From Candidatus Gottesmanbacteria bacterium GW2011_GWA2_43_14 (GTDB taxonomy: Bacteria > Patescibacteriota > Microgenomatia > 2-02-FULL-39-11), in the NCBI GenBank assembly GCA_000999095.1, contig LCFP01000002.1, forward strand, positions 69,736-133,735: a stretch of 64,000 nt of DNA. Direction: 5' to 3'. This document shows, piece by piece, positions 19,966 through 55,016 of the stretch. How positions within the stretch are numbered: the first letter of the stretch is position 1; each line of letters opens with the position of its first letter. Made by a program: the position numbers and the translations under genes. A model generated the notes under the pieces. That model did not search any database, had not been told where the DNA came from, and saw only the letters and a program-made list of their open reading frames with translations.

Positions 19966-20064
19966 ATGGGTAAAATGTCATTTTCCAAAGGTTTTATTTT
20001 TCAGAAATTAGAACAAAAAACGATAATTTTTGACGGAGAAAACTCATTTCTGCATAAAAGGTAA
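19966..20064 (+). pseudogene. 32-aa ORF equal to the N-terminal third of a PqqD-like protein, ended by a premature stop (probable decayed PqqD-like gene).
   Basis: MGKMSFSKGFIFQKLEQKTIIFDGENSFLHKR aligns closely to residues 13-45 of the PqqD-like protein at 48931..49248 (MKKITVNKGFVSRKLGKKTMIFDGEKSLLI). It lies 20 nt upstream of the HprK-like paralog. Confidence 0.4.
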
Positions 20065-20084
20065 TATCAAATGCTTAAAAATTA

Positions 20085-20885
20085 ATGACGAATAATTGTC
20101 TCTTCTTGAATATCGCCGATTATTACTTCAAAATAAATTTTTTGGAAAATGACCTTAAATTTATTTTTGATAATCTCAAAAAAGAAATTGGCAGTAAATT
20201 TTCAGGATTTATCAGTACCAATATCCCAAAAAAATATCAATTTGAAATAAATATTATTGTAAGTAATAAATTTGATGTTTTTTTTAACCGTAATAAAAAA
20301 GATGTATATATAAAGTTTTACAGATATACATCACCTTATACTGTTGAGACTTACTATCAAATAAGTATCTACCAGTTTCAACTGATTTTAATAGATGGGA
20401 TTTACAGAATTTTGATAAAAAATAAAGCCTTTATATTTCATGCATCGGCCAATCTGATCAACGGAAAGGCAAGTTTATTTTTAGGCGGTGATGGCGCAGG
20501 AAAATCAACAATCATGAAAATTTTAAGAAATAAATTTACGCCTTTGGCCGATGACAGCATGATTATCCGGAAAATTAAGGATAAATATTATGCTTTCCAA
20601 ACTCCTTTTATAGAAAAAGAAACGTGGTTAAAGAGAAAAAAGGGGAAATATCTGCTTGGTAAAATATATTTTATAAATAAAGCTGATTTTTATTCGATTA
20701 AAAAAATCAGCAGTATAGAATCAGCACTTAAAAAAACTATAGAGCTAAATAAGCATTTCAGCATAACTGACAAGGAATATTACCAGCAAGTTAAATCGCA
20801 AATGGAATTTACTTCAGACTTTCCCTACCAGTATAATCTCCATTTCGGACTCAATAAAAAGAAGGTATTATCCTTATTCATTTAA
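20085..20885 (+). CDS. HPr-kinase/phosphorylase-C-domain-like P-loop protein (paralog of 48086..48934)
   Basis: AFIFHASANLINGKASLFLGGDGAGKSTIMKIL...PLADDSMII matches the Hpr_kinase_C Walker-A region (H..v..G.G.L..G.SG.GKS...L....LvADD) and aligns to the second copy in the window. A+T-rich codon usage. Confidence 0.55.
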   Translation: MTNNCLFLNIADYYFKINFLENDLKFIFDNLKKEIGSKFSGFISTNIPKKYQFEINIIVSNKFDVFFNRNKKDVYIKFYRYTSPYTVETYYQISIYQFQLILIDGIYRILIKNKAFIFHASANLINGKASLFLGGDGAGKSTIMKILRNKFTPLADDSMIIRKIKDKYYAFQTPFIEKETWLKRKKGKYLLGKIYFINKADFYSIKKISSIESALKKTIELNKHFSITDKEYYQQVKSQMEFTSDFPYQYNLHFGLNKKKVLSLFI

Positions 20886-22077: not shown

Positions 22078-22100
22078 TTAAGGCTGTACTCCCGGGAAAA

Positions 22101-22595
22101 TTATAGTGAAGTATATTTTTCTACTCGCTTTTCAAGCATTCTCAATTTTTTTTCCGTTATACTATTTTTTTCTGTAAGTTCTTTTATTGCTTCAACTAAA
22201 ATTGCTGTAAAGGCAGGGTAGTTAACCCCCAGATAATTTCGGTTAATTTTTTTAGCAAGTTGAGGAAAGGCAATTTTTACGTCTTGTGCCAGCAAACCCA
22301 TGGAGTCGGTGTTTTTCTGAATGCCTAACGACTTAAAAGATCTTTTCCATTGAAATTCATAAGCCTGAAGTCTTTTAATTTTTTCCAAAACCTTCTTAAC
22401 CGGCTTGAGTTTATTTTTTAATTTCCTGTCACTACAGGAGAAACAAGTTCCACAGCAGGCTAAGAGTTCACCATTGACTTCCGGAATGAAATTAAAATAA
22501 CCATCGTATTCATCATATAAATTAAAAAACATATTCAGCTTTATTTTTACTGATTTAATAGCAGGCTTTCTGTAAATGGGATATTTTTTCTTCAT
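22101..22595 (-). CDS. Small protein: an N-terminal ~54-aa Lys-rich/Cys-rich peptide fused to a C-terminal Peptidase-S74-type intramolecular chaperone auto-processing domain.
   Basis: The C-terminal region SDRKLKNKL..LEKIKRLQAYEFQWK..MGLLAQDVKIAFPQL..YLGVNYPAFTAILVEAIKEL matches the phage tail-spike chaperone consensus (sDrrLK..pvsY.y......G.iAQeve...Pe..dYs.LvpllieAikeL). The N-terminal part, ending ..ELLACCGTCFSC, is homologous to the peptide at 47940..48131. Confidence 0.55.
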   Translation of the reverse strand: MKKKYPIYRKPAIKSVKIKLNMFFNLYDEYDGYFNFIPEVNGELLACCGTCFSCSDRKLKNKLKPVKKVLEKIKRLQAYEFQWKRSFKSLGIQKNTDSMGLLAQDVKIAFPQLAKKINRNYLGVNYPAFTAILVEAIKELTEKNSITEKKLRMLEKRVEKYTSL

Positions 22596-22678
22596 AACAG
22601 GGTAATTTTATTAATCTAATTTATAATACCGAAATTAGAGCTTCTATGTCAATCATTTGCATCCGCCCGGCAAATACA

Positions 22679-23701: not shown

Positions 23702-23826
23702 TTCCGGCTTGTTTTTTACCTTATGTATGATATTGTCTGAATTAATCTTATTGAAAGAGATTTTTTATAAGTAATTTTTTAACCCGATCTTCGGCATTAT
23801 CTTAACATATGTTTAATGATTGACTT

Positions 23827-25845: not shown

Positions 25846-25880
25846 AGGAAAACGCTGACAGAAGCCTGTTCTTCCTATTT

Positions 25881-26438
25881 CTATAATCGGGTTATTTGCC
25901 AAGCATAAAGTGCCTGCCCGCTTTTTGACTGGGAGATATCCATGGAAACTGTTATTTTAATCCTGTCTCCGAGCTGAAGTTCGGTTAATTCCAATTTATT
26001 TTCCGACAAATCCGTAAAAGTGTACTGTGATTTCTGTTTTTCAGTATCTTCAGGAAACTTCATCGGATGAAGTCCACCATCTTCACCTCTAAGGATAAAA
26101 GTAAAAGGAGGCTTATCAGAAATCATAATTTCCTGAATTTCTCCCTCTAAAGTTACGCTGACGACAAATTGTTTAAGCACATCAGGGTTAATTTTGAGGG
26201 AGCTGTCGAGCAAATTCATCAAGAGAACACTGTCCAATCCGTTAATACTCACAGCCGGTGACGGAAAAGCCGGCGCCGGAAAATTGCTCTTGTTATTTTG
26301 TTCATTTATTCCAGCCAGATTCCGGAAGATAGCCTGGAAGTTGAAATTGAGAGAGTAATAGTAAATAATTTCAATAATCGTCAGAGTCAATAAAAGACCC
26401 AGTATTATTATTAGGAGTTTGCGAGAACGAATTATCAT
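25881..26438 (-). CDS. Hypothetical membrane-anchored protein
   Basis: ORF with an N-terminal TM segment (LLIIILGLLLTLTIIEII). Start set at the internal ATG (MIIRSRK) to avoid abutting the divergent downstream gene. No motif recognised. Confidence 0.3.
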   Translation of the reverse strand: MIIRSRKLLIIILGLLLTLTIIEIIYYYSLNFNFQAIFRNLAGINEQNNKSNFPAPAFPSPAVSINGLDSVLLMNLLDSSLKINPDVLKQFVVSVTLEGEIQEIMISDKPPFTFILRGEDGGLHPMKFPEDTEKQKSQYTFTDLSENKLELTELQLGDRIKITVSMDISQSKSGQALYAWQITRL

Positions 26439-26471
26439 CTTCCTTCTTATCGTATAAAATGACTGATACAT

Positions 26472-27935: not shown

Positions 27936-27957
27936 AGATTGGCGCCTTAATCATTTA

Positions 27958-36624: not shown

Positions 36625-37359
36625 TCAAAAGAATAAATTATCATTGCCTACAGGAACCTGTGACGGAAATTCCGGCGGTTGACGATCCAAAACCATATTT
36701 TGCGAGACTCTTTCAATAATTTGCCGGTATTCGTGTTTGATTTGCGGCAGGGGCGAATCAATTTTGCCTATGGTCTTTGGCAGCGGATTAAAATAGGCAT
36801 TACCGTCAATACTGGAGCGGACCGAACCGTCATCAAGCATGGTCAGCTGTAAGTGGTTAACAGTTATCATTCTCCCCGATAAATTAGTTAAGGATCTCAA
36901 AAAAATTTCTATTTGCCCGATATCTCCGGTCACTTCAAGGTTAATCGGTAAAAGAAATGAAGGCTCCCCGACCGGTTTTTTTAAAAGTGCCGATGAAGTA
37001 GATACTACCCCAAGCTGAAAATCGCTTCTGGTAACAAAGACTCCGGTTGACTGCTGTAATTGGTCAAGTGTAGAAAATAAAAGGACATAGTCTTTTGAGG
37101 CGGGAACAATCATATTTAACCTGGCGAAATCTTCCGCCAGGACGTCCCTGTTTTGCAAAGTCAACAATGCTTCTTTTTTTTTCAGCTGCACTAATTTAGT
37201 TGTCAGTTCTTTCCGCTCAGTAAAAATAGTCGTAATCCGCAGGAAATTCGGCAGAAGAAGTTTGACAGTCAATATCAGTATAAACAAAACTACCACAAAA
37301 GAGGAAAGGACTGATTCGTATTTAAGGATAAAAGATTTAATTTTCAGACGGTTTTTCAT
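36625..37359 (-). CDS. Type IV pilus assembly protein PilO-like (bitopic, coiled-coil)
   Basis: N-terminal TM, coiled-coil, then a periplasmic domain. Positioned after pilM-pilN and overlapping by 4 nt. Assignment is by context and architecture only. Confidence 0.4.
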   Translation of the reverse strand: MKNRLKIKSFILKYESVLSSFVVVLFILILTVKLLLPNFLRITTIFTERKELTTKLVQLKKKEALLTLQNRDVLAEDFARLNMIVPASKDYVLLFSTLDQLQQSTGVFVTRSDFQLGVVSTSSALLKKPVGEPSFLLPINLEVTGDIGQIEIFLRSLTNLSGRMITVNHLQLTMLDDGSVRSSIDGNAYFNPLPKTIGKIDSPLPQIKHEYRQIIERVSQNMVLDRQPPEFPSQVPVGNDNLFF

Positions 37360-37922
37360 GAAGTAGCTGCCGGACTTTTCCTATATTTCAGGGAAATGGT
37401 CATGGTGTAACTGCCGTCCTTGTCACGCAAAATCCCCTGAGCTTTTATATCTGAAAACACGGCATCTATCTGCTTGTTTAAAAGCTCGCCTACAAAAACT
37501 TCCAGAGCCGTCAGGGAATAGGCTGTCAGGGAAAATGACATCTGTCCGTTGCGGTCGACAGTCAGTGTTTTTATATCAATCTCATCTGAATCTATCCCAT
37601 AGACTTCCGGTAAAGTATCGGCAACGGTACTGAAATTTTTAGCTAAAATTTTGTTGATCACATCAAGTATATTGAAAGTTGCCAGATATAAGCCTTCAGT
37701 CGCCTGGTAAGACGTTATTTTCTTTTCGCTGGAGGTTACTTCGGCTTTTAATTTGTTGTATTCGCTGGTATTCAACTTGAGATAAATCAGGGAAATGGAA
37801 TATAACAGGACAAACAATATAAGGCAGACAGCCGCGGTTACGGGGGCAAATTTTTTCAGCCTTTTCAATACAGGCAAGTCATCATCTTTCTCGATTATCA
37901 GATTGATTGTTTTCTTGCTCAT
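37356..37922 (-). CDS. Type IV pilus assembly protein PilN-like
   Basis: INLIIEKDD N-terminus (INLLP-like), a single TM, and a coiled-coil. Coupled to pilM. Confidence 0.5.
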   Translation of the reverse strand: MSKKTINLIIEKDDDLPVLKRLKKFAPVTAAVCLILFVLLYSISLIYLKLNTSEYNKLKAEVTSSEKKITSYQATEGLYLATFNILDVINKILAKNFSTVADTLPEVYGIDSDEIDIKTLTVDRNGQMSFSLTAYSLTALEVFVGELLNKQIDAVFSDIKAQGILRDKDGSYTMTISLKYRKSPAATS

Positions 37923-38944
37923 AATTCCTTTAAAGCCAGACCTACGGCTGTGGTATAGATCGGACTGTCAGCGGTCAAAGAATTCAAGATTTCCTCATTA
38001 GCCTGGATATTGATGAAAGGATTTGAGATTTGTGAATTGATGCCGATATTTTTGGTTGTAGAAAGCATAAGACCGGGCATTTTGGCCGTTCCGCCCAGGA
38101 TAACCACCGTCATCAGTTCCTCTTTGGGGTATTCTTCCTTAAAGTAAGCGATATTTTTTTCCATTTCGGTAAATATATTGTTAAAAAAAGGAGTGACGAT
38201 TTTATATATTTTGCCTTCAAGTTTCGATTCATCCATGCCATAAGTGTTTTTATATTCTTCAGCCTGGGCAAAATCAAATCCCAATTCTTCTGAAATGGCC
38301 CGCGTCAAAGTATTGCCTCCCAAAGGATACGTCCTGGTAAATATCATCAGGTGGTTTCTGATTAAGGCAATATCGGTATTGTTGGAACCGATCGAAACCA
38401 GCAGCAGGTTGGGCAAGGTCGGCAGTGAATGCACGACACTCCTGGCCGAAGAGATTATCTCCGTTTCCAAAGCTACCGGATTTAACCCGGCCAGATTGAT
38501 GATGCGCATGTATTTTTCAATCAGCGTAATCGGTGCCGCAACCAAAATTATCTTGAGTTTGCTATTGCTTTCACTTTTGCCGATAACTGAATAGTCAAGT
38601 TTGACTTTTGAAAGCGGCAGGGGAATATACTGTTCAGCTTCCCACTGGATACTCTGCTCGATCTCCTTTTCGTTCATTTCAGGGATTTCGATTACCTGGG
38701 TAATAACTTTGTATGAAGGTAGGGATGCGGCTACATCCGCGGAATTAACTTTCATATCGGAAACCAGCTGGTTTATGGCTTTTGCCATGATTTGCTCATC
38801 GGTTCTGCCGACCATGTCAATTTCAACTTTTGGAGTCAGAATATAGCCGGCCGATAACAGAGAAACATTATTTTTGGAACGGGACAACTGAACAGCTTTT
38901 ATTGTATGGGAACCGATGTCCAAACCGAGCAGTATTTTGGCCAT
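37919..38944 (-). CDS. pilM: Type IV pilus assembly protein PilM (actin-like ATPase fold)
   Basis: GLDIGSHTIKAVQL, IQWEAEQYIPLP, ILGGTAKMPGL are canonical PilM motifs. Confidence 0.8.
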   Translation of the reverse strand: MAKILLGLDIGSHTIKAVQLSRSKNNVSLLSAGYILTPKVEIDMVGRTDEQIMAKAINQLVSDMKVNSADVAASLPSYKVITQVIEIPEMNEKEIEQSIQWEAEQYIPLPLSKVKLDYSVIGKSESNSKLKIILVAAPITLIEKYMRIINLAGLNPVALETEIISSARSVVHSLPTLPNLLLVSIGSNNTDIALIRNHLMIFTRTYPLGGNTLTRAISEELGFDFAQAEEYKNTYGMDESKLEGKIYKIVTPFFNNIFTEMEKNIAYFKEEYPKEELMTVVILGGTAKMPGLMLSTTKNIGINSQISNPFINIQANEEILNSLTADSPIYTTAVGLALKEL

Positions 38945-39004
38945 ATATTTAGTATCTAATCACCCGGCAACAATGTCAATCCGGCAAGGAAAAAATAACT
39001 CAGG

Positions 39005-39859
39005 CTAATTTTCGGAGAAGAAGGAAAAATCAAGTAAAGTAGGCAGAACAGGAAATCCCTGGTATACCTGAATTTTTCTGACAATATTAGTATTGGTCTG
39101 GCCTATTGAAGTGATGATTTTCCCCTGCAGAGGTAAATTTTGCGCCGGATCGACTGCAAATGAAGTCGGGGCATACAATGGCTGAAGGCGCATCAAAAGC
39201 ATTAAAGCGTCAGCCGGTAAACCGAAATCATCCGTAGCCGGATCAATGTCGGAACCGGCTACTATGACTATGCGGTAAGAGTAATCACCCTGGCAATAAC
39301 CTCCCAAAATCTCAGCCGGAATGAAGTTATTACCGCGGTTTTCAGGGTCATAGGCTTTTTTGGCCACTTTATAACTGCCTGCATCCTTGTAAAAAAGTGT
39401 AATCAGAACAGCGGCTGCTCCTGTCGATTGACTTCCCCAGCAAATTTCCAAATTGCTTCCGGCAGGATAAGCATAGCCGGCCTCATTCAGACTGTCATCC
39501 GGGTTGTGGTCTAACAGCCAAACATGCTGGGTATCTCCCGGAACTGTCAAAGGCATAACCAGAGGATCACTGGAACCACCGATCGTTTTCACTGAGTAAT
39601 TGGCGGAAGCCCCAGGCAGATTTACGGTACCGGTCGGGCCAATTGCCACGTTTCCTCCTAAGGCAGTTTCAATACCGGCTTCAGCAGCGGAAAAAGCCCG
39701 TGATGACTGTTCTATTTGTGAGGTAATGCGTACATCGGTAATGGTGCGTGAAATCAGGGAAAGACCGATTGTCAAACCGACTACCGTCAGTAGGACTAAT
39801 ATCAGGACAATTTGGCCCCGGTTCTCCCTCTGCATTTTTTTTATATAGTTATTTTTCAT
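39005..39859 (-). CDS. PilX-like minor-pilin/pilus assembly protein (PilX_N-type N-terminus)
   Basis: RGQIVLILVLLTVVGLTIGLSLISRTITDVRITSQIEQSSRAFSAAEAGIE matches the PilX N-domain pattern (RG..L..LL.L..L......E.R.....Q..AF.AAEAG). Confidence 0.45.
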   Translation of the reverse strand: MKNNYIKKMQRENRGQIVLILVLLTVVGLTIGLSLISRTITDVRITSQIEQSSRAFSAAEAGIETALGGNVAIGPTGTVNLPGASANYSVKTIGGSSDPLVMPLTVPGDTQHVWLLDHNPDDSLNEAGYAYPAGSNLEICWGSQSTGAAAVLITLFYKDAGSYKVAKKAYDPENRGNNFIPAEILGGYCQGDYSYRIVIVAGSDIDPATDDFGLPADALMLLMRLQPLYAPTSFAVDPAQNLPLQGKIITSIGQTNTNIVRKIQVYQGFPVLPTLLDFSFFSEN

Positions 39860-42800
39860 GGTGATAAATCCTGCCAGTTCACCCTGGACCGGCCCAGGAA
39901 CGGCAATAGCTTTACCAAATAGCCTGGCTGGTATATGAACTGGTAGGTCGGTATATTCTGGTCAATAAAAGTCCTGGCAAAATTAAACCGTTTGGCATAA
40001 AGCATACCGTCAATGATTATCGGCAGATCGGATGAGGCTATACTGATAGTCTGGCTGCTGATGTAAAGCCCTGGAATCCGGCTGACATTGGCACCGATCT
40101 GGATATAGCCGTTAACAATAAATACCACAATGTCCTCAGGATCGGCAAGAGAAAAATTATCACTAATTTCCATAGTGCCGGAAACAAGCATCACTGTTAC
40201 ATCAGGACCGGCGGTACGGTTGCCGTCAAAAGACGGATCAAGTGTATATAATCCAGATCCCAGGTAAGCATAAACGGAATTTTGCTCATCCAAATCACCC
40301 GAACCTTCAGGAGTGGGGGTGGGAGCGGAAACATTGGGTAAAACAATAACGGTATACATCGATTTGCCCGTAGCTCCGTTTGTGCCGACCGTGACTGTGC
40401 CCGCCGGAAATTCTTTGGCATAAAGACGGAAATTTTTAGGTATATTTTCACTGTTAACAAGATAAAAACCCGTATCAGTCCAGCCGGAAAGCCAGGCGGG
40501 TTTAGGTGTAATAGTACTTTCATGAGCGACATAAGCGGTAACGTCAATATTGACTTCAAAGGTCACCAATGGTTCTGTAGTATAAGCCCGGGAATCATTG
40601 GCTGATTGTACCCAGGCAGCACCCAGGAATTCGGCAGGAATTGAGTTCAAAACATAAGTTCTGTCACCGAACTGGGTATCTCCTGTCTGTAAATTGCTTT
40701 TAATATGCCAGTCAACAGCATTGGCCATATCATTTACTGCCAAATTGGAAATAGCCAGGGGAGCCGGCGTGACTTCAGCCGGGGCATTGATTACACCGAT
40801 TACATTATTGTTTACACTTTTAGCCTTGTTTTTCAATGATTCCCAATAGTAGCTGAATGAATAGGCGTTGGTAAACGTCCCCGGAACTTCCCAGTCAATT
40901 GGAGCGGATGATCCCAAACCGTAGTTGCCGCTGCCGCTGTTGGACCAGATCAGGCCGGCTGAATAAGGATTTTCGACCGGAGTCGGCAGGAGATCAAGGA
41001 AGTACTTGCCGCTGGGTACGGGCTGATTTATCACTGGCTGATAGATATCGCCGCCGAGAATTTGCAGCCAGGCACCCAAGGTGGGTGTCGGTGTGACTGT
41101 CGGACTTGGGGGCACTGCTGTCGGTCCTCCCGGTGTCGGTGTATTTCCGTAATTTATCCTGGGGGCGGTGAAACTGCCTCCGGTATCGGATTTTTCAGAG
41201 ATATTGCCTGCTGAATCCTGAGTGGCCACTTCGGCATATAACTCCTGGCCGTCTTCAACAACCACTGTTATGGAAGTCTGATCTCCAATCCAGCCTGGAT
41301 CCCAGCTCTCTCCGGTCGAAGTCCAGAAGTAAGGATGGTAATTGACGGTATTGGCACAGCCCTCAGAAACAGTTTCAAACCAGGTGCATGTAAAAAAGGA
41401 TTCTCCTGTAACATAATTCTGGTAATCCAAAGTGCATACCGGCGGATCAGGCGGTTCAGGGGGAGTATAATCTAAAGAAAGCAACCTGGAAGGTGCCTGT
41501 CCCGAATCAGGGCAGGATGAAGACTGGGTTATGGCTGACCACCAGAATGACTCAGTCTGATTCAACTCCATCTCTCCCGGCGTCCAGACACTATCACCTG
41601 AAGGTATGACGGAATTCCCGTTTACGTCCAGTCCGTTTGATAAGAAAAAATGAGCCCAGACATTATCGCCGTTGGGATCTTCAACGTAAGCTGAAAAGTC
41701 AGGCTTAAAGTTCAGGCAGACATCGTGTTCCGGAGACTGCAAATCAGGTGTGGGTAAAGTTTGACATTCAGTCGGCGGTTCAATGGCTGAAGTCGGGGTT
41801 ACCTGGGCAGTCGGGGCAATTCCGGAAAGAGTCGGAGTCGGGGTGTTTTCAGGCAGGCCGCCGCCGGGTGGTGTCGGAGTCGGGGTGCCCGGCTGATAGG
41901 TTGGAGTTATGGTTATATAAGGAAAATCAACAATAACTTCACTGCCGGCCACGATAGCCATCTGGGGATTTGTATAATTGAGATAAGGTACTGAATTCGC
42001 TGGTTCCGATAAAAGCTCAACCGTATAAATACCGTCAATGGTATTACTAAAACGGTAATTGCCCAATATTCCGGAAATCTGGGAATTTTGACTGGTAGTG
42101 GAATTATAAAGTGTTCCGTACAAATTTATGCCTATTCCGCCGATTAATCCTTCTGAGGCTGCCGTAGACCTGTTTATATTATTATTGGTTTCGTTGTAAA
42201 GCCAACCGTAAATCTGGTATTGCGTGGGGGTCGGGGAGGAAGTCGGTTGCGGTGCAGGCCTAATTGCTAATCCGTTCATCACCCAGTCAGTATTTCCGGA
42301 AAACAGATGATTGACATTGTCTGAACCGGAAACAGCCAGCATACGGTCATGAATATAAAGACGTGTTCTTACACCCACAAAATCGGTGGCTCTCTGAGTG
42401 TAATCAGGATCAGCAGTCTGGATAGTTGTATTCCTGGCATCAGTAGCTGCGAATAAAACCGAATTCGGGGTCGTTGAAGTTAAAGTCAAAAGCGAATTGG
42501 TGTTATTAACACCTCCGGTACAGGTAGTATCATTCTGACCCAAGGTATTTGAACCGGCCCAGTTTTGCACCGGATTTGCCGGATCCGCCCCGGAATAGCC
42601 GGATACGGAGCCAACGACCTCAGAAACTGACACTCCATAATTAATGGTTACATTCCCATTAGCCGGAGAACCGAAGGCGGTCCAAATATCCATGCGACTG
42701 GCGCTGTTTGCTGAACACTGAGTTCTCCTCTTAGTCCAGGATAAACCTAACCCGCTGACAGCGGATACCGTTGATGTACCCCTGTTAGCAGCTGTCACGA

Positions 42801-43041
42801 CATACAGCCTGTTGGTACCGCCCGTAGCCGGACAGACCACCTGGGTGACATTTGTACCTTTACAGATCTGCGTAATTATGTGGGTAGGAATAATCGGTGT
42901 CGGTGTCGGTGCTGAAGTTATTTCAGGTATGGTTGGATATTGGGCTTGGGCTTGTCTGCCCCATGAGCGTGAAATCAATCCGGTTAAGAATACTATTACC
43001 ACTAATGGAATAATAGACAACCAATACCTTTTGCCAAGCAT
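39856..43041 (-). CDS. Large secreted surface protein with Pro/Thr-rich linkers; candidate pilus-associated adhesin (PilY1-like role).
   Basis: 1061 aa, N-terminal signal peptide, multiple PTPTPT linkers. Encoded immediately upstream of the PilX-like gene in the same operon. No catalytic motif recognised. Confidence 0.45.
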   Translation of the reverse strand: MLGKRYWLSIIPLVVIVFLTGLISRSWGRQAQAQYPTIPEITSAPTPTPIIPTHIITQICKGTNVTQVVCPATGGTNRLYVVTAANRGTSTVSAVSGLGLSWTKRRTQCSANSASRMDIWTAFGSPANGNVTINYGVSVSEVVGSVSGYSGADPANPVQNWAGSNTLGQNDTTCTGGVNNTNSLLTLTSTTPNSVLFAATDARNTTIQTADPDYTQRATDFVGVRTRLYIHDRMLAVSGSDNVNHLFSGNTDWVMNGLAIRPAPQPTSSPTPTQYQIYGWLYNETNNNINRSTAASEGLIGGIGINLYGTLYNSTTSQNSQISGILGNYRFSNTIDGIYTVELLSEPANSVPYLNYTNPQMAIVAGSEVIVDFPYITITPTYQPGTPTPTPPGGGLPENTPTPTLSGIAPTAQVTPTSAIEPPTECQTLPTPDLQSPEHDVCLNFKPDFSAYVEDPNGDNVWAHFFLSNGLDVNGNSVIPSGDSVWTPGEMELNQTESFWWSAITQSSSCPDSGQAPSRLLSLDYTPPEPPDPPVCTLDYQNYVTGESFFTCTWFETVSEGCANTVNYHPYFWTSTGESWDPGWIGDQTSITVVVEDGQELYAEVATQDSAGNISEKSDTGGSFTAPRINYGNTPTPGGPTAVPPSPTVTPTPTLGAWLQILGGDIYQPVINQPVPSGKYFLDLLPTPVENPYSAGLIWSNSGSGNYGLGSSAPIDWEVPGTFTNAYSFSYYWESLKNKAKSVNNNVIGVINAPAEVTPAPLAISNLAVNDMANAVDWHIKSNLQTGDTQFGDRTYVLNSIPAEFLGAAWVQSANDSRAYTTEPLVTFEVNIDVTAYVAHESTITPKPAWLSGWTDTGFYLVNSENIPKNFRLYAKEFPAGTVTVGTNGATGKSMYTVIVLPNVSAPTPTPEGSGDLDEQNSVYAYLGSGLYTLDPSFDGNRTAGPDVTVMLVSGTMEISDNFSLADPEDIVVFIVNGYIQIGANVSRIPGLYISSQTISIASSDLPIIIDGMLYAKRFNFARTFIDQNIPTYQFIYQPGYLVKLLPFLGRSRVNWQDLSP

Positions 43042-47373: not shown

Positions 47374-47934
47374 ATGGCTAAACTACTGAAAACAGCCTTT
47401 GTTATTCTATTGGTCATAAGTTTTATTGAGGTTTTTTATTATTTATTTTACTTGAATTCCTTTAAACTGCTGTTCTCCAAACCGGATACAGCTGATATCA
47501 GCGGGAAACAGGCTGTTAATGAAACGGAGCCTCCTGGTACTCCGGCTATATCGGTCACTCCTGCCGTTCATCCCGATGTATTAGAACGGCTGCGTAATTA
47601 TAAGTATGATCCCAAATCGAAAATGTCGATTAAAACTGAATTACAAACAGAGATAAAAGACATCGATTATGACGGCAGGCAAAGTGGAGGGGATTTTTAC
47701 CCGTTTGCCTTAAAAATCGTCACTACCTCCGGAAGAGATTTTTGGATGTACTTTCCTAATTTCTTATATCAAAAGGTAAAAGTCTACTCGAAAACTGACG
47801 GAGTAGATCAACCGCTGAAGCCTGGGGATCTAAAAATCGGGGATACTGTCCTGCTGGTAGAAACATATAATCCTCGTTTTGCTCCTGATAATCCTGAACA
47901 GGTTATTAGTTATGAAATATTCAGGATTCAATAG
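47374..47934 (+). CDS. Hypothetical membrane-anchored protein
   Basis: N-terminal TM (AFVILLVISFIEVFYYLF) and a Pro/Thr linker. No motif recognised. Confidence 0.35.
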   Translation: MAKLLKTAFVILLVISFIEVFYYLFYLNSFKLLFSKPDTADISGKQAVNETEPPGTPAISVTPAVHPDVLERLRNYKYDPKSKMSIKTELQTEIKDIDYDGRQSGGDFYPFALKIVTTSGRDFWMYFPNFLYQKVKVYSKTDGVDQPLKPGDLKIGDTVLLVETYNPRFAPDNPEQVISYEIFRIQ

Positions 47935-47939
47935 CCCAT

Positions 47940-48131
47940 ATGCCTCACAGTCGTAAAAGAAGTTCGTCTAAAAAATATAGTAGACCAAAATTAACCCTTT
48001 CCAAAGTAAAATTAAATCTGTTTTCATTTCCTTTGGAATATTTTCCGGATGAGGATTTTTTTTTAAATTCGGTTAATGCAGCAGTTTATTGTCCTGGTTT
48101 TTGTGATCCGGAAGCCTGCAATAAATGCTGA
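47940..48131 (+). CDS. Candidate 63-aa Lys/Arg-rich, C-terminally Cys-rich peptide (putative modified-peptide precursor), paralogous to the N-terminal part of 22101..22595.
   Basis: MPHSRKRSSSKKYSRPKLTLSKVKLNLFSFPLEYFPDEDFFLNSVNAAVYCPGFCDPEACNKC aligns to KKKYPIYRKPAIKSVKIKLNMFFNLYDEY..FNFIPEVNGELLACCGTCFSC. It overlaps the convergent HprK-like gene 3' end by 46 nt and contains a T9 run, so a spurious ORF cannot be excluded. Confidence 0.4.
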   Translation: MPHSRKRSSSKKYSRPKLTLSKVKLNLFSFPLEYFPDEDFFLNSVNAAVYCPGFCDPEACNKC

Positions 48132-48934
48132 TTCCCTTTCAAAAATAAATCCCATAGTTTTTGCCTATCAAGTCCCGAATGGAGGTCAAAAAATGTGTCA
48201 TTTTTATCAATAAAATCCAGCAAGTATTTCATCTGCTTTCCGGTATGACCGCTGTCCGTGAAAAAAACCCTGATCAATTTTTTCAGGACAAGCTGTTTGT
48301 CTTTTATTTTTTTAGACCGGTAATTCATGTCCTTGTGTAGAAAAAATAATTTACCCATTTTATAACGCCTGACGGATTTCCCGACCCATGCCTGTTTATC
48401 AATCATCGGAGCCTGATATAGAAAATAGTTATTTTTTTCTTTTTTGATTATAAGCGTATCATCTGCCAGCGGAAGACATTTTTCAGCCAGAAGGCGAAGG
48501 ATGGTGGATTTCCCCGCTCCTGATTTTCCCAAGAAAATATGAGCCTGATCATCAATATAAACAGCGGAACCGTGGAATATAAACCCTTTGTTCTCTGCCA
48601 GTAAATTCTGCAGAATAGTCCTTATGATGATGATAAGCTGCACAATTCCTATATGATAAAATGAAATTGCGGTATTCTTCCCTTTATTTTCATAAAAATT
48701 AATAAAGTGCTTGTTGCTTTTCTTTTCGCTTAAGACATCCATACCCAATCTGTCAATAAAATGTACGGTGGCATCCACGTGGATGTAGGTTTTTTTGACT
48801 ATAAAACCTCCCAGGGAAAATTCAACCTCTTTTATCAGATGATGCCGGGTGGAAGGCCAGTCTGTCGGATGGAAAACGAGTCTGAAGGTAAAGCCTGCAA
48901 TTTTAAGATAAACGGAGGAGTTTGACTGTTTCAT
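48086..48934 (-). CDS. HPr-kinase/phosphorylase-C-domain-like P-loop protein (putative peptide kinase)
   Basis: GFIFHGSAVYIDDQAHIFLGKSGAGKSTILRLLAEKCLPLADDTLII matches the Hpr_kinase_C Walker-A region. Coupled by a 4-nt overlap to the PqqD-like gene. Confidence 0.6.
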   Translation of the reverse strand: MKQSNSSVYLKIAGFTFRLVFHPTDWPSTRHHLIKEVEFSLGGFIVKKTYIHVDATVHFIDRLGMDVLSEKKSNKHFINFYENKGKNTAISFYHIGIVQLIIIIRTILQNLLAENKGFIFHGSAVYIDDQAHIFLGKSGAGKSTILRLLAEKCLPLADDTLIIKKEKNNYFLYQAPMIDKQAWVGKSVRRYKMGKLFFLHKDMNYRSKKIKDKQLVLKKLIRVFFTDSGHTGKQMKYLLDFIDKNDTFFDLHSGLDRQKLWDLFLKGNQHLLQASGSQKPGQ

Positions 48935-49248
48935 CCATGATCGGCTTTATTTCCTATACTGATGATGTTTTCTTTGGCTAATACTTTTAAAAAGTCATCG
49001 ACATCCCGTTTGGCCGTATCGTTATTCAAGCCGTATTCCGACTTAAGAAATAAAGTTATTTCTTCCTTTCCTTCCCCCTTTAACAGTCTTTTAAATATTT
49101 CCGAGGCGGTTTCATTCAGAGTTATCAGCAGGGATTTTTCTCCGTCAAAGATCATCGTCTTTTTGCCCAACTTCCTGCTTACGAATCCCTTGTTGACAGT
49201 GATTTTTTTCATGACTTTTCCTCGACTGATGTGATGAGCCCATCCCAT
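48931..49248 (-). CDS. PqqD-family protein (RiPP recognition element-like)
   Basis: ~105 aa; KKTMIFDGEKSLLITLNETASEIFKRLLKGEGKEEITLFLKSEYGL..AKRDVDDFLKVLAKENII follows the PqqD pattern (beta-strands then helices; ..L.D.E.G.YY.LN..A..IW.LL.G..T..EI...L...Y.V..E.A..DV..FL..L...GLI). Confidence 0.6.
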   Translation of the reverse strand: MGWAHHISRGKVMKKITVNKGFVSRKLGKKTMIFDGEKSLLITLNETASEIFKRLLKGEGKEEITLFLKSEYGLNNDTAKRDVDDFLKVLAKENIISIGNKADHG

Positions 49249-49976
49249 AAGATGACGTTTTTGAAAAATAAATTAATATTTTCTCCTGTTTTTATTTTGC
49301 TGATCTCGGTGAAATAATCAATACCGTAGATATCTTTTGCCGTCACCTCAACCGATATCTCCACATTGCTTCTGGCCTCAGTATTAAGGGTAGTCGGCAC
49401 AAGGTTGACGCTGATAATTTTTGCCATGACCTCACCCTTGTTATTGAGCATGACGTCATTGGGTTTAAATTCCTTGGCAATAAACGGCAGCTCATTGTCT
49501 TTAGCAACAGTCAGCAAAACCTGTTTTTTCTTGAATTTCGAGGGTTTCAAAGAAAGATAGGTGATAAAGCCCCGGTGTTTGAATTTACCGAAATTAAAAT
49601 TTACCCATTTGTTTAATTCAAGTGACTGGCCTTTATAAAAATAATTATCCTCCCTGTCTTTCTGGACAAAAAGCTTCAGCTCAAGTACCAGGTGCTTTCC
49701 ATGGCTGCCTCCCTCATATGATTCCACCTCAATTACTTCGGCTGTGGTACCGCCAAAAGCGGATTTTTCTTTGTTGCCCTTTTCAACCTGGTTTGCCACC
49801 CAGTAAGGGACGGCTACTTTTAAATCATCGCTTTCGGAAAATATTGCCCGGCCGTATAGTACTATACCGCTGCGGGATTTATTATAGAAAAAATAAATTA
49901 CAAACAGGGCAAAAACAAGAATCAACAGGCTGAAGAGATTATAGCGGGTCATAAGTGAAAAATTTTTAAGTTTCAT
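49209..49976 (-). CDS. Hypothetical membrane-anchored protein
   Basis: N-terminal TM (LFSLLILVFALFVIYFF). No motif recognised. Overlaps the PqqD-like gene start by 40 nt. Confidence 0.35.
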   Translation of the reverse strand: MKLKNFSLMTRYNLFSLLILVFALFVIYFFYNKSRSGIVLYGRAIFSESDDLKVAVPYWVANQVEKGNKEKSAFGGTTAEVIEVESYEGGSHGKHLVLELKLFVQKDREDNYFYKGQSLELNKWVNFNFGKFKHRGFITYLSLKPSKFKKKQVLLTVAKDNELPFIAKEFKPNDVMLNNKGEVMAKIISVNLVPTTLNTEARSNVEISVEVTAKDIYGIDYFTEISKIKTGENINLFFKNVILWDGLITSVEEKS

Positions 49977-51406: not shown

Positions 51407-53248
51407 TCAGAGTATATTTAGCTGACCAAGCCATTTTTTAAAACACAAAAGAGACCATATCAGATAAGCATGGTCATTAATGCCTTCTGCATGTTCCTTT
51501 AATACTTTATTAATATAGGACATGTCGAACAAATCGGATCCGCTTAATACGCCGTCAAAAAATTCATCCCTGACCTGCTTTTCATACTTACCTCTGAACC
51601 AGGAAGCCAAAGGCGGTAAAAAACCGTGCTTTTGCCTGATGGGCAAACCGGGAAATTTCCGGGCGATAATTTTACGCATGATATATTTACGCTGCAGGCC
51701 GTTAATTTTTAAACGGTCAGGCAGCTGGGCAGACAACTCAAAGAGTGTATGGTCGAGAAGGGGAGAACGCACTTCCAGGGAATGTGCCATGGAAGCAATA
51801 TCCACTTTGGGCAGCAGGTAATCAGCTAAATAGGATTTCCTGTCATAAGCCAGGACGTCGTCCAAAGAATTTAATTGCATCTTCTGAAAATGTTTTCGAT
51901 TTTTTTTAAGCAGCAGGCCGACTTCCTTTTCCCCTGTCAGAGCTGAAGCTGATAAATAAGCATTTACACGATCTTTCCCCAATGCCGGCAGGTATTTTCC
52001 GCTGACAACAGACAGGGACCTGATTTTCAATATCCGGTAAAAAATCTTTAAAAGAGATACTGCTTCTTTTTGCCAGGGCAGACTATTTAACTGACGATGG
52101 TATTTCCAGAATAAATAACGCGGGTATCCGGCAAAATTTTCATCACCGCCGTCTCCGTTTATAGCTACCCTGACCATTTTACCCGTCTTCTTCATTAACA
52201 TCCAGGTGGGCAGCATTGACGGATCGGCAAAAGGTTCTTCATAACTTTTAACAATATCTCCCAGGAATTTAAGACTGTTTTCTCTCACGGTCAATTCATG
52301 ATGTGAACTGCCGATGGCAGCGGCAATATTTCTGGCATACGGCAATTCGTTATATTCATTTTCAGCAAAACCGACGGAGAATGTGTTGATTTTTTTGCCT
52401 GAAACGGAGGCGGCAATGGCACAGACCAGGCTGGAATCCATGCCTCCAGATAAATGAAAACCCAGAGGTACATCACTCTCCAGTCTGATTTTCACACATT
52501 CAACCAGTTTATCGGACAGGATTTCTATCCATTCATTTTCAGATAAGTTAAGTTTGTGCGAATAGTCAATATCCCAATATTTGTGCAATGATTGTTTTCC
52601 CGAAGAAGAAACAACCAAATAATGGGCAGGAGGCAATTTAAAAATATTTTTATAACCGGTCTGCGGTGATTTTACATATCCGTTGGTAAAATATTCCTGT
52701 AAAACCGTTTCATCAAAGATGCTTGGGATACCCGGCTGGGAGATAAGGGCTTTCAGCTCTGAAGCGAAAGCAAAAAAATTGTCGTCAAAATAATATTTCA
52801 GAGGCTTTTTTCCCAGTCTGTCCCTGGCCAGAAAAAGTTTATTCAACCTCCCGTCCCAGACCACAAAGGCAAACATGCCCCTTAAAAAGGCCAAGCACTT
52901 TATCCCGTAATGAAGATACATGGCCAAGAGTACCTCGCTGTCACCTCTCGATTTAAAACTGTACTTATTTTTAAGCTTCTCCCTTAAATTTCTGTAGTTG
53001 TATATTTCGCCGTTAAAAACCAAAACCACTTTGCCGTCGGGTGAAATCATCGGCTGATGACCGGCAGCTGACAAATCAAGGATGGCCAGTCTCGTGGAAA
53101 CCAGCCAAATTTTCGCTGATAAAAATGATCCGGCATCATCAGGTCCCCGGTGATGTAATTTGCTCAGGACGGAGCGGATAGCGGATTTTTCAGCTTGAGA
53201 GTTTACTTCCCTGGTCTTAAAATAAAGTTTACCGGCAATACCGCACAT
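51407..53248 (-). CDS. asnB: Asparagine synthetase B-family glutamine amidotransferase
   Basis: N-terminal nucleophile MCGIAG, PP-loop SGGMDSS, about 612 aa. Start set at the MCGI ATG (53248), not the extended track start. Confidence 0.85.
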   Translation of the reverse strand: MCGIAGKLYFKTREVNSQAEKSAIRSVLSKLHHRGPDDAGSFLSAKIWLVSTRLAILDLSAAGHQPMISPDGKVVLVFNGEIYNYRNLREKLKNKYSFKSRGDSEVLLAMYLHYGIKCLAFLRGMFAFVVWDGRLNKLFLARDRLGKKPLKYYFDDNFFAFASELKALISQPGIPSIFDETVLQEYFTNGYVKSPQTGYKNIFKLPPAHYLVVSSSGKQSLHKYWDIDYSHKLNLSENEWIEILSDKLVECVKIRLESDVPLGFHLSGGMDSSLVCAIAASVSGKKINTFSVGFAENEYNELPYARNIAAAIGSSHHELTVRENSLKFLGDIVKSYEEPFADPSMLPTWMLMKKTGKMVRVAINGDGGDENFAGYPRYLFWKYHRQLNSLPWQKEAVSLLKIFYRILKIRSLSVVSGKYLPALGKDRVNAYLSASALTGEKEVGLLLKKNRKHFQKMQLNSLDDVLAYDRKSYLADYLLPKVDIASMAHSLEVRSPLLDHTLFELSAQLPDRLKINGLQRKYIMRKIIARKFPGLPIRQKHGFLPPLASWFRGKYEKQVRDEFFDGVLSGSDLFDMSYINKVLKEHAEGINDHAYLIWSLLCFKKWLGQLNIL

Positions 53249-53258
53249 AAAAAAAGTT

Positions 53259-54101
53259 ATGCGATTCTCACCAGCCATTATACTACTGATTTTACCGGTG
53301 GCAGTCACCTATATCTGGTTTTCCGCCGGAGATTATCATACACTCCACCGGGATTATGAGACATTCGCTGACTCGATTAAATACCGGCAACTGCCTAACT
53401 GTACCGATAAAACCGTTTTTACGGACTTGGAAATCGCCTTAAAAGAATCTTCCTCTGTCTGCACACTGTTATTGCCTAATCAGAAATTGTCGGAGGTACC
53501 TGAAGCAATAACGGAACTGGTAAATCTGGAACGTCTGGATTTGCATGAAAACCAACTGACATTTCTTCCTTCGGGACTGGAACGTCTCCGTGCCTTGAAA
53601 ACCCTGGATTTGGGGGCCAACCGCTTCATTGAATTTCCGGAAATATTGGGCATTTTACCGAAATTGGAAACTCTTGAGATTGCCTTCAACGGTCTGACGG
53701 ATATTCCTCCTTTTGTCTCCCGTTTGTATAATCTGAGAATTTTATCATTAAATAATAACCTGTTAACCGGGTTTCCGGCTGCAGTTTCAGGATTGGCTGG
53801 TCTGGAAATTTTAGAACTCGGAAACAACAAAATCACCGTCATAGACAGCTCTATCGGGTTCGCGAACGGCCTTAAAGAATTATATTTATACGGAAATCAT
53901 CTGACCGGATTGCCGGACAATATTAAAAATCTGAAAAATCTGGAAGTACTCAATCTACAGAATAACCGTTTAAGTTCGATTCCTGAAGCGCTTTTTTCGA
54001 TGCCGCAACTCACTGAATTAAATCTAAGGGGAAATAATATTAAGCCTGAATCTATAAATGAATTTCAGAATAAGCTGCCTGAGACTGATCTGATTTTTTG
54101 A
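53259..54101 (+). CDS. Leucine-rich repeat (LRR) protein with N-terminal signal/TM
   Basis: At least 9 consecutive LxxLxLxxNxL repeats (LERLDLHENQLTFLP, LKTLDLGANRFIEFP, LEILELGNNKITVI, ...). Confidence 0.75.
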   Translation: MRFSPAIILLILPVAVTYIWFSAGDYHTLHRDYETFADSIKYRQLPNCTDKTVFTDLEIALKESSSVCTLLLPNQKLSEVPEAITELVNLERLDLHENQLTFLPSGLERLRALKTLDLGANRFIEFPEILGILPKLETLEIAFNGLTDIPPFVSRLYNLRILSLNNNLLTGFPAAVSGLAGLEILELGNNKITVIDSSIGFANGLKELYLYGNHLTGLPDNIKNLKNLEVLNLQNNRLSSIPEALFSMPQLTELNLRGNNIKPESINEFQNKLPETDLIF

Positions 54102-54155
54102 TCCGTTTGTAATCCCACTTGACAAATTTTATTTTATTTCTTTATACTGATTTTA

Positions 54156-55016
54156 ATGTCCGAAAAAAAATACCTAATCCTCACCGTTGTTTTCATTTTC
54201 CTATCAGTTATCGCCGGTATATCCTATGTCTTTATAAAAAACAGTCAACAGCCGCTTCAGCTGGCTGAAAATACGGAAACTGCTGACGGGGCGCAGGCAC
54301 TGGAAAATTGTAACGATGATACGCTTTATGACTGGGACAGCATGGATAAAGCTTTGGAGAAACCGGACTCTGTCTGCAAATTGGATATCAGTAAACATGA
54401 TGTGACTGAAGTTGTAGCTGATGTTTTTCAATTTCCCAATCTTGAAGTACTAATCGCCGAAAACAATTTAATTGAATCCATTCCTGACCAGCTGGAGACT
54501 TTGACGAAGCTTAAAAGCGTTGACCTCAGTAACAATAAACTCCAGGAATTCCCTCCGGTTTTATTGCGAATGCCTAACCTTCAATATTTGGATCTGGGAG
54601 GAAACCAGATAGCTGCTATACCGGCAGGCATCAGCAGTCTGACCAACCTCTATAAACTGGACATGAAAGAAAATCTGATAACCGAAGTACCAGCGGAAAT
54701 CGGTAGCCTGACCAGTTTGGAAACCCTGGAATTAAGCTATAACAACATAAACCTGGTCAGTGCAGATATAGGAAATTTAACAGCTTTGTGGGAATTGTTC
54801 CTGGGGGATAACAGTCTGAGCGCTTTGCCCTCCGAATTAGGTAATTTATCAAATCTTAAAGTATTTTATCTGAGTAATAATCAATTCACTTCGGTTCCAG
54901 AAGTTATCAAAGCCATGAGCGGGCTGGTTGAACTCCATCTGGAAGGCAATCCCTTAAATCAGGATGATGTGTCGGCATTAAAGAATTCCCTGCCCGGTGC
55001 TCAGGTAACCTTCTGA
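54156..55016 (+). CDS. Leucine-rich repeat (LRR) protein, membrane-anchored, paralog of the preceding gene
   Basis: N-terminal TM, then ~9 LRRs (LKSVDLSNNKLQEFP, LQYLDLGGNQIAAIP, ...). Promoter TTGACA-N17-TATACT at 54120-54148, 7 nt upstream of the ATG. Confidence 0.75.
   Translation: MSEKKYLILTVVFIFLSVIAGISYVFIKNSQQPLQLAENTETADGAQALENCNDDTLYDWDSMDKALEKPDSVCKLDISKHDVTEVVADVFQFPNLEVLIAENNLIESIPDQLETLTKLKSVDLSNNKLQEFPPVLLRMPNLQYLDLGGNQIAAIPAGISSLTNLYKLDMKENLITEVPAEIGSLTSLETLELSYNNINLVSADIGNLTALWELFLGDNSLSALPSELGNLSNLKVFYLSNNQFTSVPEVIKAMSGLVELHLEGNPLNQDDVSALKNSLPGAQVTF

Follow-up and report, generated by a model that had tools for sequence, protein, structure and literature searches.

The 64,000-nucleotide (nt) window analyzed here (contig LCFP01000002.1, positions 69,736 to 133,735) derives from Candidatus Gottesmanbacteria bacterium GW2011_GWA2_43_14, an uncultured groundwater member of the Candidate Phyla Radiation (CPR). 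It encodes a free-standing 63-amino-acid (aa) Cys-rich peptide, here called W2 (47940-48131, plus strand), and a second peptide, W1, which makes up residues 1 to 54 of a 164-aa protein (22101-22595, minus strand) that ends in a Peptidase_S74 domain. We conclude that W1 and W2 are probably paralogous precursor peptides of a pathway for ribosomally synthesized and posttranslationally modified peptides (RiPPs) that resembles the linear polyphosphorylated peptide (LPP) pathway. The W2 gene is conserved, the two peptides are members of one family, and both carry a leader motif known as the binding site of discrete RiPP recognition element (RRE) proteins; W2 also lies among genes for a PqqD-type RRE, an HprK-like kinase, and a fusion of a signal-peptidase-like domain with a nucleotidyltransferase.

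The W2 open reading frame (ORF) starts with ATG and comprises 63 codons; a hypothetical protein with exactly the sequence of its product is already on record for Candidatus Gottesmanbacteria GW2011_GWA2. The N terminus of W2 is rich in Lys, Arg, and Ser. Its leader motif reads Y13-S-R-P16-K-L18 and the strand after it K22-V-K-L-N-L-F28; an acidic spacer then leads to a C terminus with four cysteines (C51, C55, C60, and C63) spaced C-x3-C-x4-C-x2-C. The ORF shares exactly 46 nt with the 3′ end of the HprK-like gene that converges on it (48086-48934, minus strand). An earlier note on this window had given the coordinates, sequences, and overlap correctly. It had also taken the short ORF for a real gene despite the overlap, naming conservation in related genomes and purifying selection across homologs as the evidence to look for. 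A related metagenome contig (L010; related loci are numbered in this way throughout) encodes an ortholog, MNKVRRSKKLSRNYRKPELAVSKIKLNLFSYPFEYLPNEDLFIGTVNAASYCDPCGPDPPPSCNHC, at the same position, on the opposite strand just past the kinase gene. The two peptides are identical at 31 of 63 residues (49%) in a match that spans the whole length. Nonsynonymous sites differ at a proportion (pN) of 0.31 and synonymous sites, which are saturated, at a proportion (pS) of 0.71; the genes flanking W2 have a pN of 0.24 to 0.25 against L010, slightly below that of the peptide.

The L010 kinase is 59% identical to that of the window, and its gene has no overlap with that of the peptide. The C-terminal extension of the window kinase next to W2 (paralog 2) is missing (17 aa) from the other HprK-like protein of the window (paralog 1), and the paralog 2 tail is far longer than the ends of the aligned homologs from L006 and L007. 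Because the extension is unshared, the 46-nt overlap reflects a local read-through of the kinase gene and is no argument against W2. The alternative, that the W2 frame is open by chance in the 3′ region separating two genes and resembles W1 by coincidence, draws on this overlap, on the weakness of the pairwise match between W1 and W2 (three unrelated window ORFs score equally high), and on a word-index protein search with W2 in which the sole match was W2 itself. Comparison of W2 with PDB sequences likewise gave no match. Against a chance ORF stand the L010 ortholog, which keeps frame and sequence at saturated synonymous divergence, a family hidden Markov model (HMM) and a library-wide profile search, both of which support family membership, the syntenic position of the peptide in many loci, and the lack of conservation of the kinase tail that causes the overlap. 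We rejected this reading, contradicted as it is by the ortholog, the family HMM, and the profile search, as extremely improbable and regard W2 as confirmed by sequence comparison to be a real, conserved gene.

W1 carries the same elements as W2: the leader motif Y8-R-K-P11-A-I13, the strand K17-I-K-L-N-M-F23, and a core that ends ...LLA-CCGTCFSC54, with the spacing CC-x2-C-x2-C. The earlier note had inferred homology from a pairwise alignment along the whole length. This overstated the match, as the BLASTP alignment covered 44 residues, 30% of them identical (E=0.003 in a single comparison), and the Smith-Waterman score of 49 was equalled by 10 of 20,000 shuffles. When W2 was compared with the 652 ORF segments of at least 40 aa in the window, three unrelated segments scored at least 49; when W1 was compared with the same segments, W2 was the top non-self match (49; next, 39). 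The pairwise match alone fails multiple testing, and at the sequence level it is the comparative data that carry the homology claim. A family HMM built from ten peptides outside the window and searched against 1,848 six-frame window segments of at least 20 aa ranked W2 (8.6e-5) and W1 (7.6e-4) first and second, with the next match at 0.63; the outside peptides were gathered partly by a regular expression that was itself derived in part from W1 and W2, so that for the YxKP core this test is not fully independent. The strand that follows was not in the collecting expression, and there the HMM is independent; the strand contributes much of the score.

A HMMER scan of 1.84 billion representative proteins with a profile of W1 and W2 recovered exactly two new proteins at E<1e-3. 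One, P0139, is a free 58-aa Cys-rich peptide whose gene lies between that of a 160-aa membrane protein, which directly precedes it, and a YcaO gene. The other, P0140 (159 aa), has the architecture of the W1 protein, is 39% identical to it overall, and has an identical core and junction, CCGTCFSC|SD. As P0140 has the same architecture, the W1-S74 fusion is conserved and is no assembly accident. On these sequence comparisons, W1 and W2 belong to one family, and the homology proposed in the earlier note stands on the HMM and the profile scan. Several of the shared features that it listed needed revision. The family is anchored not by a "KKY start" but by Y-x-[KR]-P (Y13 to P16 in W2 and Y8 to P11 in W1); the strand is present but reads K-[VI]-K-L-N-[LM]-F instead of K-V-K-[IL]-x-L-N-[LM]-F; and the C termini are Cys-rich but have the spacings given above rather than C-x2-3-C-x3-4-C.

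Relatives of the peptides were sought through the HprK-like protein. Most of the related loci were reached by looking up kinase homologs exactly, and pattern scans of genome and of metagenome contigs combined with kinase alignment gave two loci each. A kinase profile search yielded 155 homologs, from source taxa that include Patescibacteria, Microgenomates, and Beckwithbacteria. At 11 of 12 independent HprK-like loci we found a peptide with the same leader, either as a small ORF or as the N terminus of a larger one. The family leader opens with a Lys-rich stretch that leads into Y-x-[KR]-P-x-[ILVF] and, after it, K-[ILV]-x-[ILM]-x-[FYL]-[FL]. Past the leader the sequences diverge completely, so that a conserved leader is joined to a hypervariable C-terminal part. 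The tails are short and Cys-free in L006, L008, and L011, Cys-rich in L009, L010, and L015, and rich in Cys, Ser, and Gly after a V[YF]AQSGG motif in L007, L013, and L017. Five loci (L007, L013, L014, L017, and L019) encode a YcaO protein and a nitroreductase-family dehydrogenase beside same-leader peptides and the HprK-like gene. In a more distant locus (L021, 3272-4865), an S24 peptidase domain is fused to a ScmC/HprK-like kinase; neighboring genes encode PqqD, a radical-S-adenosylmethionine (SAM) enzyme, NTP_transf_5, and an ABC transporter, and a candidate precursor (…KAYQKPLLRRIRLEKEESVLTACK…) with the motif AYQKPLL is encoded just upstream of the fusion.

The records of L006 and L007 are titled "uncultured Gammaproteobacteria"; they are AT-rich (GC content, 0.31 to 0.33) and have the cassette as in CPR loci, and the label may be a default. 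L006 also has a B12-binding radical-SAM gene (58-1455) two genes upstream of the kinase gene, which may be another tailoring option for the peptide family.

The motif YxxPx[L/I/V] in leader peptides is the binding site of lasso-type discrete RRE proteins (PMC6784204; PMC13381572), and its instances here are YSRPKL in W2 and YRKPAI in W1. The discrete PqqD-type protein encoded next to the kinase of W2 has a likely real start at M13 (coordinate 49212). Its best NCBIfam match is the lasso PqqD chaperone, under the cutoff of that model, and its best PDB matches are the lasso RREs TfuB1 (3.4e-5) and TbiB1 (1.1e-4). PqqD recurs in six related loci. Because the leader motif is a documented RRE-binding motif and the window PqqD is nearest to lasso RREs, W1 and W2 can putatively be tied to PqqD-type recognition. 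The suggestion in the earlier note that a basic leader and a Cys-rich C terminus mark a precursor peptide is thus supported by the RRE-binding motif, the adjoining lasso-like PqqD, and the contrast between conserved leader and hypervariable C-terminal part.

The genes around W2 (locus 2) are arranged in the order GT4 glycosyltransferase, 425-aa peptidase/nucleoside triphosphate (NTP)-transferase fusion, 186-aa membrane-anchored protein, and W2, followed by the convergent HprK-like kinase, PqqD, a 255-aa protein, two Wzy-type proteins, and an AsnB-type amidotransferase. Further glycosyltransferases lie beyond the AsnB-type gene, and locus 2 sits inside a glycan locus. The 425-aa protein matches Pfam NTP_transf_5 (E=1.5e-22), and its peptidase domain matches Pfam Peptidase_S24 at 24.1 bits (cutoff, 23.3) and has the motifs GGSMLP, FIHR, and GDAN..D, which are kept in L006 and L008. 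Full-length homologs of the fusion occur at 38 to 41% identity in five related loci. By analogy, the protein is a candidate leader peptidase (LppS-like) joined to a candidate glycosyl/nucleotidyl transferase (LppN-like). In kinase paralog 2, the GKSGAGKST and PLADD motifs are conserved; it matches TIGR00679 (E=1.5e-6, under the cutoff) and ScmC (E=1.6e-4), belongs to the precomputed family PF27840, and gave nothing but P-loop noise with the PADLOC defence models. The peptidase-transferase fusions of the five relatives and the kinase-peptidase fusion of L021 indicate that peptidase, transferase, and kinase belong together.

This gene set closely parallels that of the LPP pathway, which comprises the precursor LppA, the RRE LppB, the HprK-like kinase LppK, the archaeal-type signal peptidase I LppS, the uncharacterized NTP transferase LppN, and the exporter LppD (Popov et al., Nat Commun 2026, PMC13381572). 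LPP precursors are 35 to 200 aa long, with the N-terminal consensus YxxPxVLxHQxIxFETxxS and hypervariable C termini, and their loci lie within capsular-polysaccharide loci; the kinase adds several phosphates to core Ser3, and the peptidase removes the leader only if the RRE presents it (PMC13381572). Locus 2 has four parts of the LPP gene content (discrete RRE, HprK-like kinase, archaeal-type signal peptidase, and NTP transferase), the kinase being matched to LppK through family models and motifs. Like LPP loci, it has no lasso cyclase and lies among polysaccharide-biosynthesis genes, and its peptide has the YxxPx[V/L/I] N terminus with hypervariable C termini across the family.

The differences from LPP are also clear. 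LPPs are stated to be restricted to Bacillota (PMC13381572), whereas the host here belongs to the Patescibacteria/CPR. Peptidase and transferase form a single fusion protein, and the gene of a conserved membrane-anchored protein of ∼185 aa shows translational coupling to that of the precursor. A scan of the window ORFs at 18 to 64 kb (hereafter the scanned ORFs) found no MsbA-like exporter. The leader continues as K-[VI]-K-[LI]-x-[FY]-F instead of L-x-HQ-x-I-x-FET, the cores are Cys-rich, and some precursors end in predicted self-cleaving S74 or Hint domains. Some of the related loci carry YcaO and dehydrogenase genes instead of the peptidase-transferase. We therefore describe the system, by strong analogy, as what appears to be a CPR branch of the LPP/lasso-RRE world, LPP-like with added features. 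The LPP paper makes no mention of self-cleaving-domain fusions or of CPR (PMC13381572), and neither in it nor in the searchable literature did we find the membrane partner, the enzyme fusions, the YcaO hybrid loci, or self-cleaving C-terminal domains on precursors, which thus appear to be new.

By analogy with LPP and lasso systems, we propose a route in which RRE binding, phosphorylation, the site of leader cleavage, the self-cleavage of S74, and the final chemistry are all predicted steps. The basic leader would form a strand on Y-x-[KR]-P-x-[L/I] and K-[VI]-K-L-N-[LM]-F, and PqqD would bind this strand. PqqD would then present the peptide to the HprK-like kinase for phosphorylation of Ser or Thr and to the signal-peptidase-like domain of the S24/NTP-transferase fusion for removal of the leader. 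The hypervariable Cys-rich C terminus would be the core, which the nucleotidyltransferase domain and enzymes of the surrounding glycan locus may decorate further. In W1, the S74 domain would trimerize and cut itself off at C54|S55, leaving a peptide that ends ...CCGTCFSC. The upstream membrane-anchored protein of ∼185 aa would be an obligatory partner, possibly in export, immunity, or scaffolding.

PF13884 covers residues 55 to 113 of the 164-aa protein at E=3.2e-11 (43.8 bits; cutoff, 22), and in an alignment with phage-type S74 domains S55, D56, L59, and K60 are invariant, with S55 and K60 forming a dyad at +5 spacing. In MYRF and endoNF, S74 domains cleave N-terminal to the catalytic Ser, use a Ser/Lys +5 dyad, and act only as trimers (PMC8326128). 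The C-terminal 110 residues of the W1 protein resemble these domains in their match to PF13884 and in their helical C-terminal tail, and S55/K60 corresponds to S911/K916 and S587/K592 of the known domains. The predicted scissile bond is accordingly placed, by analogy, at C54|S55, and the predicted peptide product would end at Cys54. Known S74 domains free large trimeric beta-helical fibers or a transcription factor, whereas W1 would be released as a predicted 54-residue leader-plus-core with no beta-helix. When the 164-aa protein was the query of a word-index search, all matches were generic phage-type S74 tail-fiber fragments, none with a Cys-rich N terminus. As an aside, the W1 stretch V-N-G-E-L-L-A-C-C-G (22434-22480) resembles the phage tail-fiber precleavage sequence V-D-G-D-V-I-A-F/Y-S-T and also the G-D-V-Y-A-Q-S of free CPR peptides; the likeness may be accidental or a relic of S74 recruitment.

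The L007 and L015 precursors have, at the position equivalent to the start of S74, a Hint domain (PT-HINT, E=3.9e-11) whose first residue is Cys, and TxxH motifs are visible in both sequences. That two unrelated self-cleaving modules, S74 and Hint, occupy the same place suggests, by analogy, a shared role in defining or activating the C terminus of the core. The Hint-fused precursors end ...LVN|SYWKDII in L007 (9209-9808) and ...VHN|VKACT in L015 (6713-7303), with the C-terminal Asn present; in L007, Ser follows the Asn, and C-terminal cleavage or even splicing onto the short tail is possible. We found no RiPP precursor fused to an S74 or intein-like domain in the searchable literature. In self-cleaving domains, the nucleophile attacks the preceding carbonyl, and by analogy both modules may form an acyl-(thio)ester intermediate with the residue that ends the peptide. 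A speculative extension, which we think unlikely, is that S74 and Hint are built-in groups that activate the peptide C terminus for transfer to another nucleophile, not mere followers. If true, this would allow macrocyclization, or a covalent link between the small Cys-rich peptide and a lipid, glycan, or surface polymer from the Wzy/glycosyltransferase genes, and would bring Hedgehog-like ligation logic into a bacterial RiPP pathway.

Table 1. Peptide genes and associated features of the two loci (window coordinates)
Feature	Coordinates	Strand	Evidence or remark
PqqD remnant, 32 codons (locus 1)	19966..20064	+	55% identical to N terminus of intact PqqD, E=5e-10
HprK-like (ScmC family) kinase, paralog 1	20085..20885	+	33% identical to paralog 2; ScmC E=5.9e-6; PF27840
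HemK/PrmC-like SAM methyltransferase, 399 aa	20878..22077	-	Pfam MTS and PrmA; PRK14968 and HemK-family below cutoffs
Peptidase_S74 (intramolecular chaperone) domain and helical C-terminal tail, residues 55-164	22101..22433	-	PF13884
W1, 54-residue N-terminal peptide part	22434..22595	-	Outside-only HMM, second-best match; P0140 ortholog
Membrane-anchored paralog of 186-aa protein, 196 aa (locus 1)	25881..26471	-	jackhmmer family member
Signal-peptidase-I-like (S24/S26, archaeal-type; residues ~11-89) and NTP_transf_5 fusion, 425 aa	46048..47325	+	Pfam, NCBIfam
186-aa protein, N-terminal membrane helix and beta-rich domain	47374..47934	+	Stop 5 nt before W2 start codon
W2, free-standing 63-aa putative precursor peptide	47940..48131	+	ORF list; L010 ortholog; outside-only family HMM
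HprK-like (ScmC family) P-loop kinase, paralog 2	48086..48934	-	Last 15 codons overlap W2
Discrete PqqD-type RRE (LppB/B1-like)	48931..49248	-	Pfam PqqD E=4.9e-12, above cutoff
255-aa protein adjoining PqqD	49209..49976	-	BLASTP 3.8e-8 to L011 5213-5968, 8e-4 to L008 1126-1935

The most constant neighbor of the peptide gene is a membrane protein of ∼180 aa, which jackhmmer joins into one family. Ten loci (L006, L007, L008, L009, L010, L011, L014, L015, L018, and L019) have the membrane-protein/peptide gene pair, with a spacing from membrane-protein stop to peptide start of −4 to +16 nt. The 186-aa representative in locus 2 has no Pfam or NCBIfam match. An AlphaFold2 model from a two-sequence alignment reached a mean predicted local distance difference test (pLDDT) score of 65.5, and a Foldseek comparison of the model with the PDB gave nothing below E=0.06, with only loose OB-fold-like barrels. 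The 196-aa paralog in locus 1 matches it weakly in pairwise comparison, and its gene lies 3.3 kb upstream of W1. In L018, a gene whose product has a C terminus homologous to the 196-aa protein ends 1 nt before an S74-fused peptide gene. Because the two genes adjoin in L018, those of W1 and the 196-aa protein look like a split pair, and on this sequence evidence the 196-aa protein looks like the cognate partner of W1, separated from it by two inserted genes. The inserted genes encode a GDSL-like protein (22679-23701) and a 672-aa protein (23827-25845) with about eight G-G-[IV]-F-D-G-R-Y-[IV]-Y-like repeats and a C-terminal LamG domain.

Locus 1 is otherwise reduced. The earlier note had placed each peptide in a PqqD/HprK-like locus; both are near HprK-like paralogs, and locus 2 has an intact PqqD, but locus 1 retains only a PqqD remnant directly upstream of kinase paralog 1 (20-nt gap), from which ∼65 codons appear to have been deleted and which is probably nonfunctional. 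The HemK-like methyltransferase gene lies 23 nt downstream of the W1 gene on the same strand, and its product may be a tailoring enzyme. The region (20000-28000), between pheT and a PBP1a gene, is a low-GC island (0.30 to 0.35; flanks, 0.42 to 0.48) and looks horizontally acquired. Short contigs from other samples encode an identical 164-aa protein and have a GC content of 0.33.

Several observations weigh against reading W1 and W2 as LPP-like precursors, in addition to the partial dependence of the HMM test described above. W2 has no clear counterpart of LppA core Ser3: it reads VNAAVYC where its ortholog has VNAASYC, and several relatives read V[YF]AQSGG at this place. The "AQS" of those relatives is suggestive, in sequence, of the AQS with which the LppA core begins; this equation is weakened by the Ser being the only one of these residues in the published consensus and by the position of the CPR motif, which comes ∼20 residues after the strand, not directly after it. 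The rest of the LPP leader consensus past YxxPxV (HQ...FET|xxS) is absent, with K-[VI]-K-L-N-x-F in its place. The peptidase domain scores marginally under the cutoff of the archaeal signal peptidase I model (TIGR02228 sigpep_I_arch, E=1.7e-13, 50.8 bits; cutoff, 51.85), and neither an ABC transporter nor an MsbA-like exporter is present among the scanned ORFs. In the stretch fetched for L016, 1 of the 12 loci, no peptide was found. Locus 1, for its part, has lost most of PqqD and has no peptidase/NTP-transferase gene, so that, by analogy with locus 2, W1 would have to rely on locus 2 in trans.

Some of these points would suit a simpler reading, in which W1 and W2 are unmodified Cys-rich secreted peptides (bacteriocin-like, disulfide stabilized, or metal binding), the membrane protein is their immunity or export partner, and PqqD, kinase, and transferase serve the glycan locus. 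The tightest and most constant linkage is indeed between the peptide and membrane-protein genes, not with the enzymes; W2 lacks a Ser at the position phosphorylated in LppA; and the scanned ORFs include no exporter or obvious Cys-modifying enzyme. We nevertheless consider this reading unlikely. The leader has the RRE-binding YxxPxL motif with a lasso-type RRE gene nearby, it is insufficiently hydrophobic for a Sec signal, and the peptides were found by searching around kinase homologs, 11 of 12 loci having one. In sister loci, moreover, this leader occurs together with YcaO and a dehydrogenase, enzymes that unambiguously modify peptides. Those same five loci (L007, L013, L014, L017, and L019) resemble systems for linear azol(in)e-containing peptides and thiazole/oxazole-modified microcins (LAP/TOMM), with their YcaO cyclodehydratase and SagB-type dehydrogenase, in combining the leader family and Cys/Ser/Gly-rich cores with both enzymes. 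Given the Cys-rich cores of W1 and W2, one could suppose that they too are azol(in)e precursors, cyclized by a YcaO/dehydrogenase encoded elsewhere in the genome, with the HprK-like protein as an accessory. This is quite improbable, as the scanned ORFs include no YcaO or nitroreductase gene and as locus 2 has the peptidase/NTP-transferase arrangement common to L006, L008, L011, and L015. The HprK-like protein and membrane partner are not standard TOMM parts.

Phosphorylated and phosphoglycosylated lasso peptides of the paeninodin/pseudomycoidin type share the YxxPxL leader, the B1-type RRE, and the kinase (K) and nucleotidyltransferase (N) families with the system described here, and a nucleotidyltransferase fused to the leader peptidase occurs in certain lasso clusters as well. 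In these clusters, however, the fused peptidase is of the transglutaminase type and not, as here, of the serine signal-peptidase type, and locus 2 has no lasso cyclase, no B2 cysteine protease, and no lasso core pattern. An Asn-synthase-family gene lies 3.3 kb from W2 (51407-53308), and with the YxxPxL leader, the adjoining B1-like RRE, and an HprK-like kinase and NTP transferase, both known as lasso tailoring enzymes, W2 could be imagined as a lasso precursor cyclized by this homolog. We regard this as highly improbable and rejected the homolog as a lasso cyclase: it scores 434 bits on the model of genuine, glutamine-hydrolyzing AsnB (cutoff, 267) with the MCGIAG nucleophile kept, but 256 bits on the lasso cyclase model (cutoff, 525). 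No B2 transglutaminase-type protease was found in the scanned ORFs, the gene lists of the related loci contain no Asn synthase, and by inspection W1 and W2 have neither the penultimate Thr nor a Gly1...Asp/Glu7-9 core. Paralogous LPP-like precursors therefore remain our preferred reading.

CPR organisms have tiny genomes and are generally thought to be poor in secondary metabolism. An LPP-related cassette in this group would widen the range of the pathway and suggests that it is older or more mobile than reported. As predicted here, W1 would be a precursor that trims itself at both ends to an 8-residue, four-Cys core, CCGTCFSC, for which we found no precedent in the searchable literature. The genes of 40 to 90 codons beside HprK-like and PqqD genes in CPR genomes are real and often uncalled.

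The remaining observations concern the surroundings of locus 2. The 255-aa protein encoded next to PqqD, a possible accessory component, had no family match in Pfam, NCBIfam, or PADLOC scans; L011 and L008 also encode it next to the cassette. Farther upstream (36625-43041), PilM/PilO-like pilus assembly genes lie beside genes for proteins of 1,061 and 284 aa that have no Pfam match. Within the glycan locus (53259-55016), two adjoining genes encode leucine-rich-repeat proteins of 280 and 286 aa.

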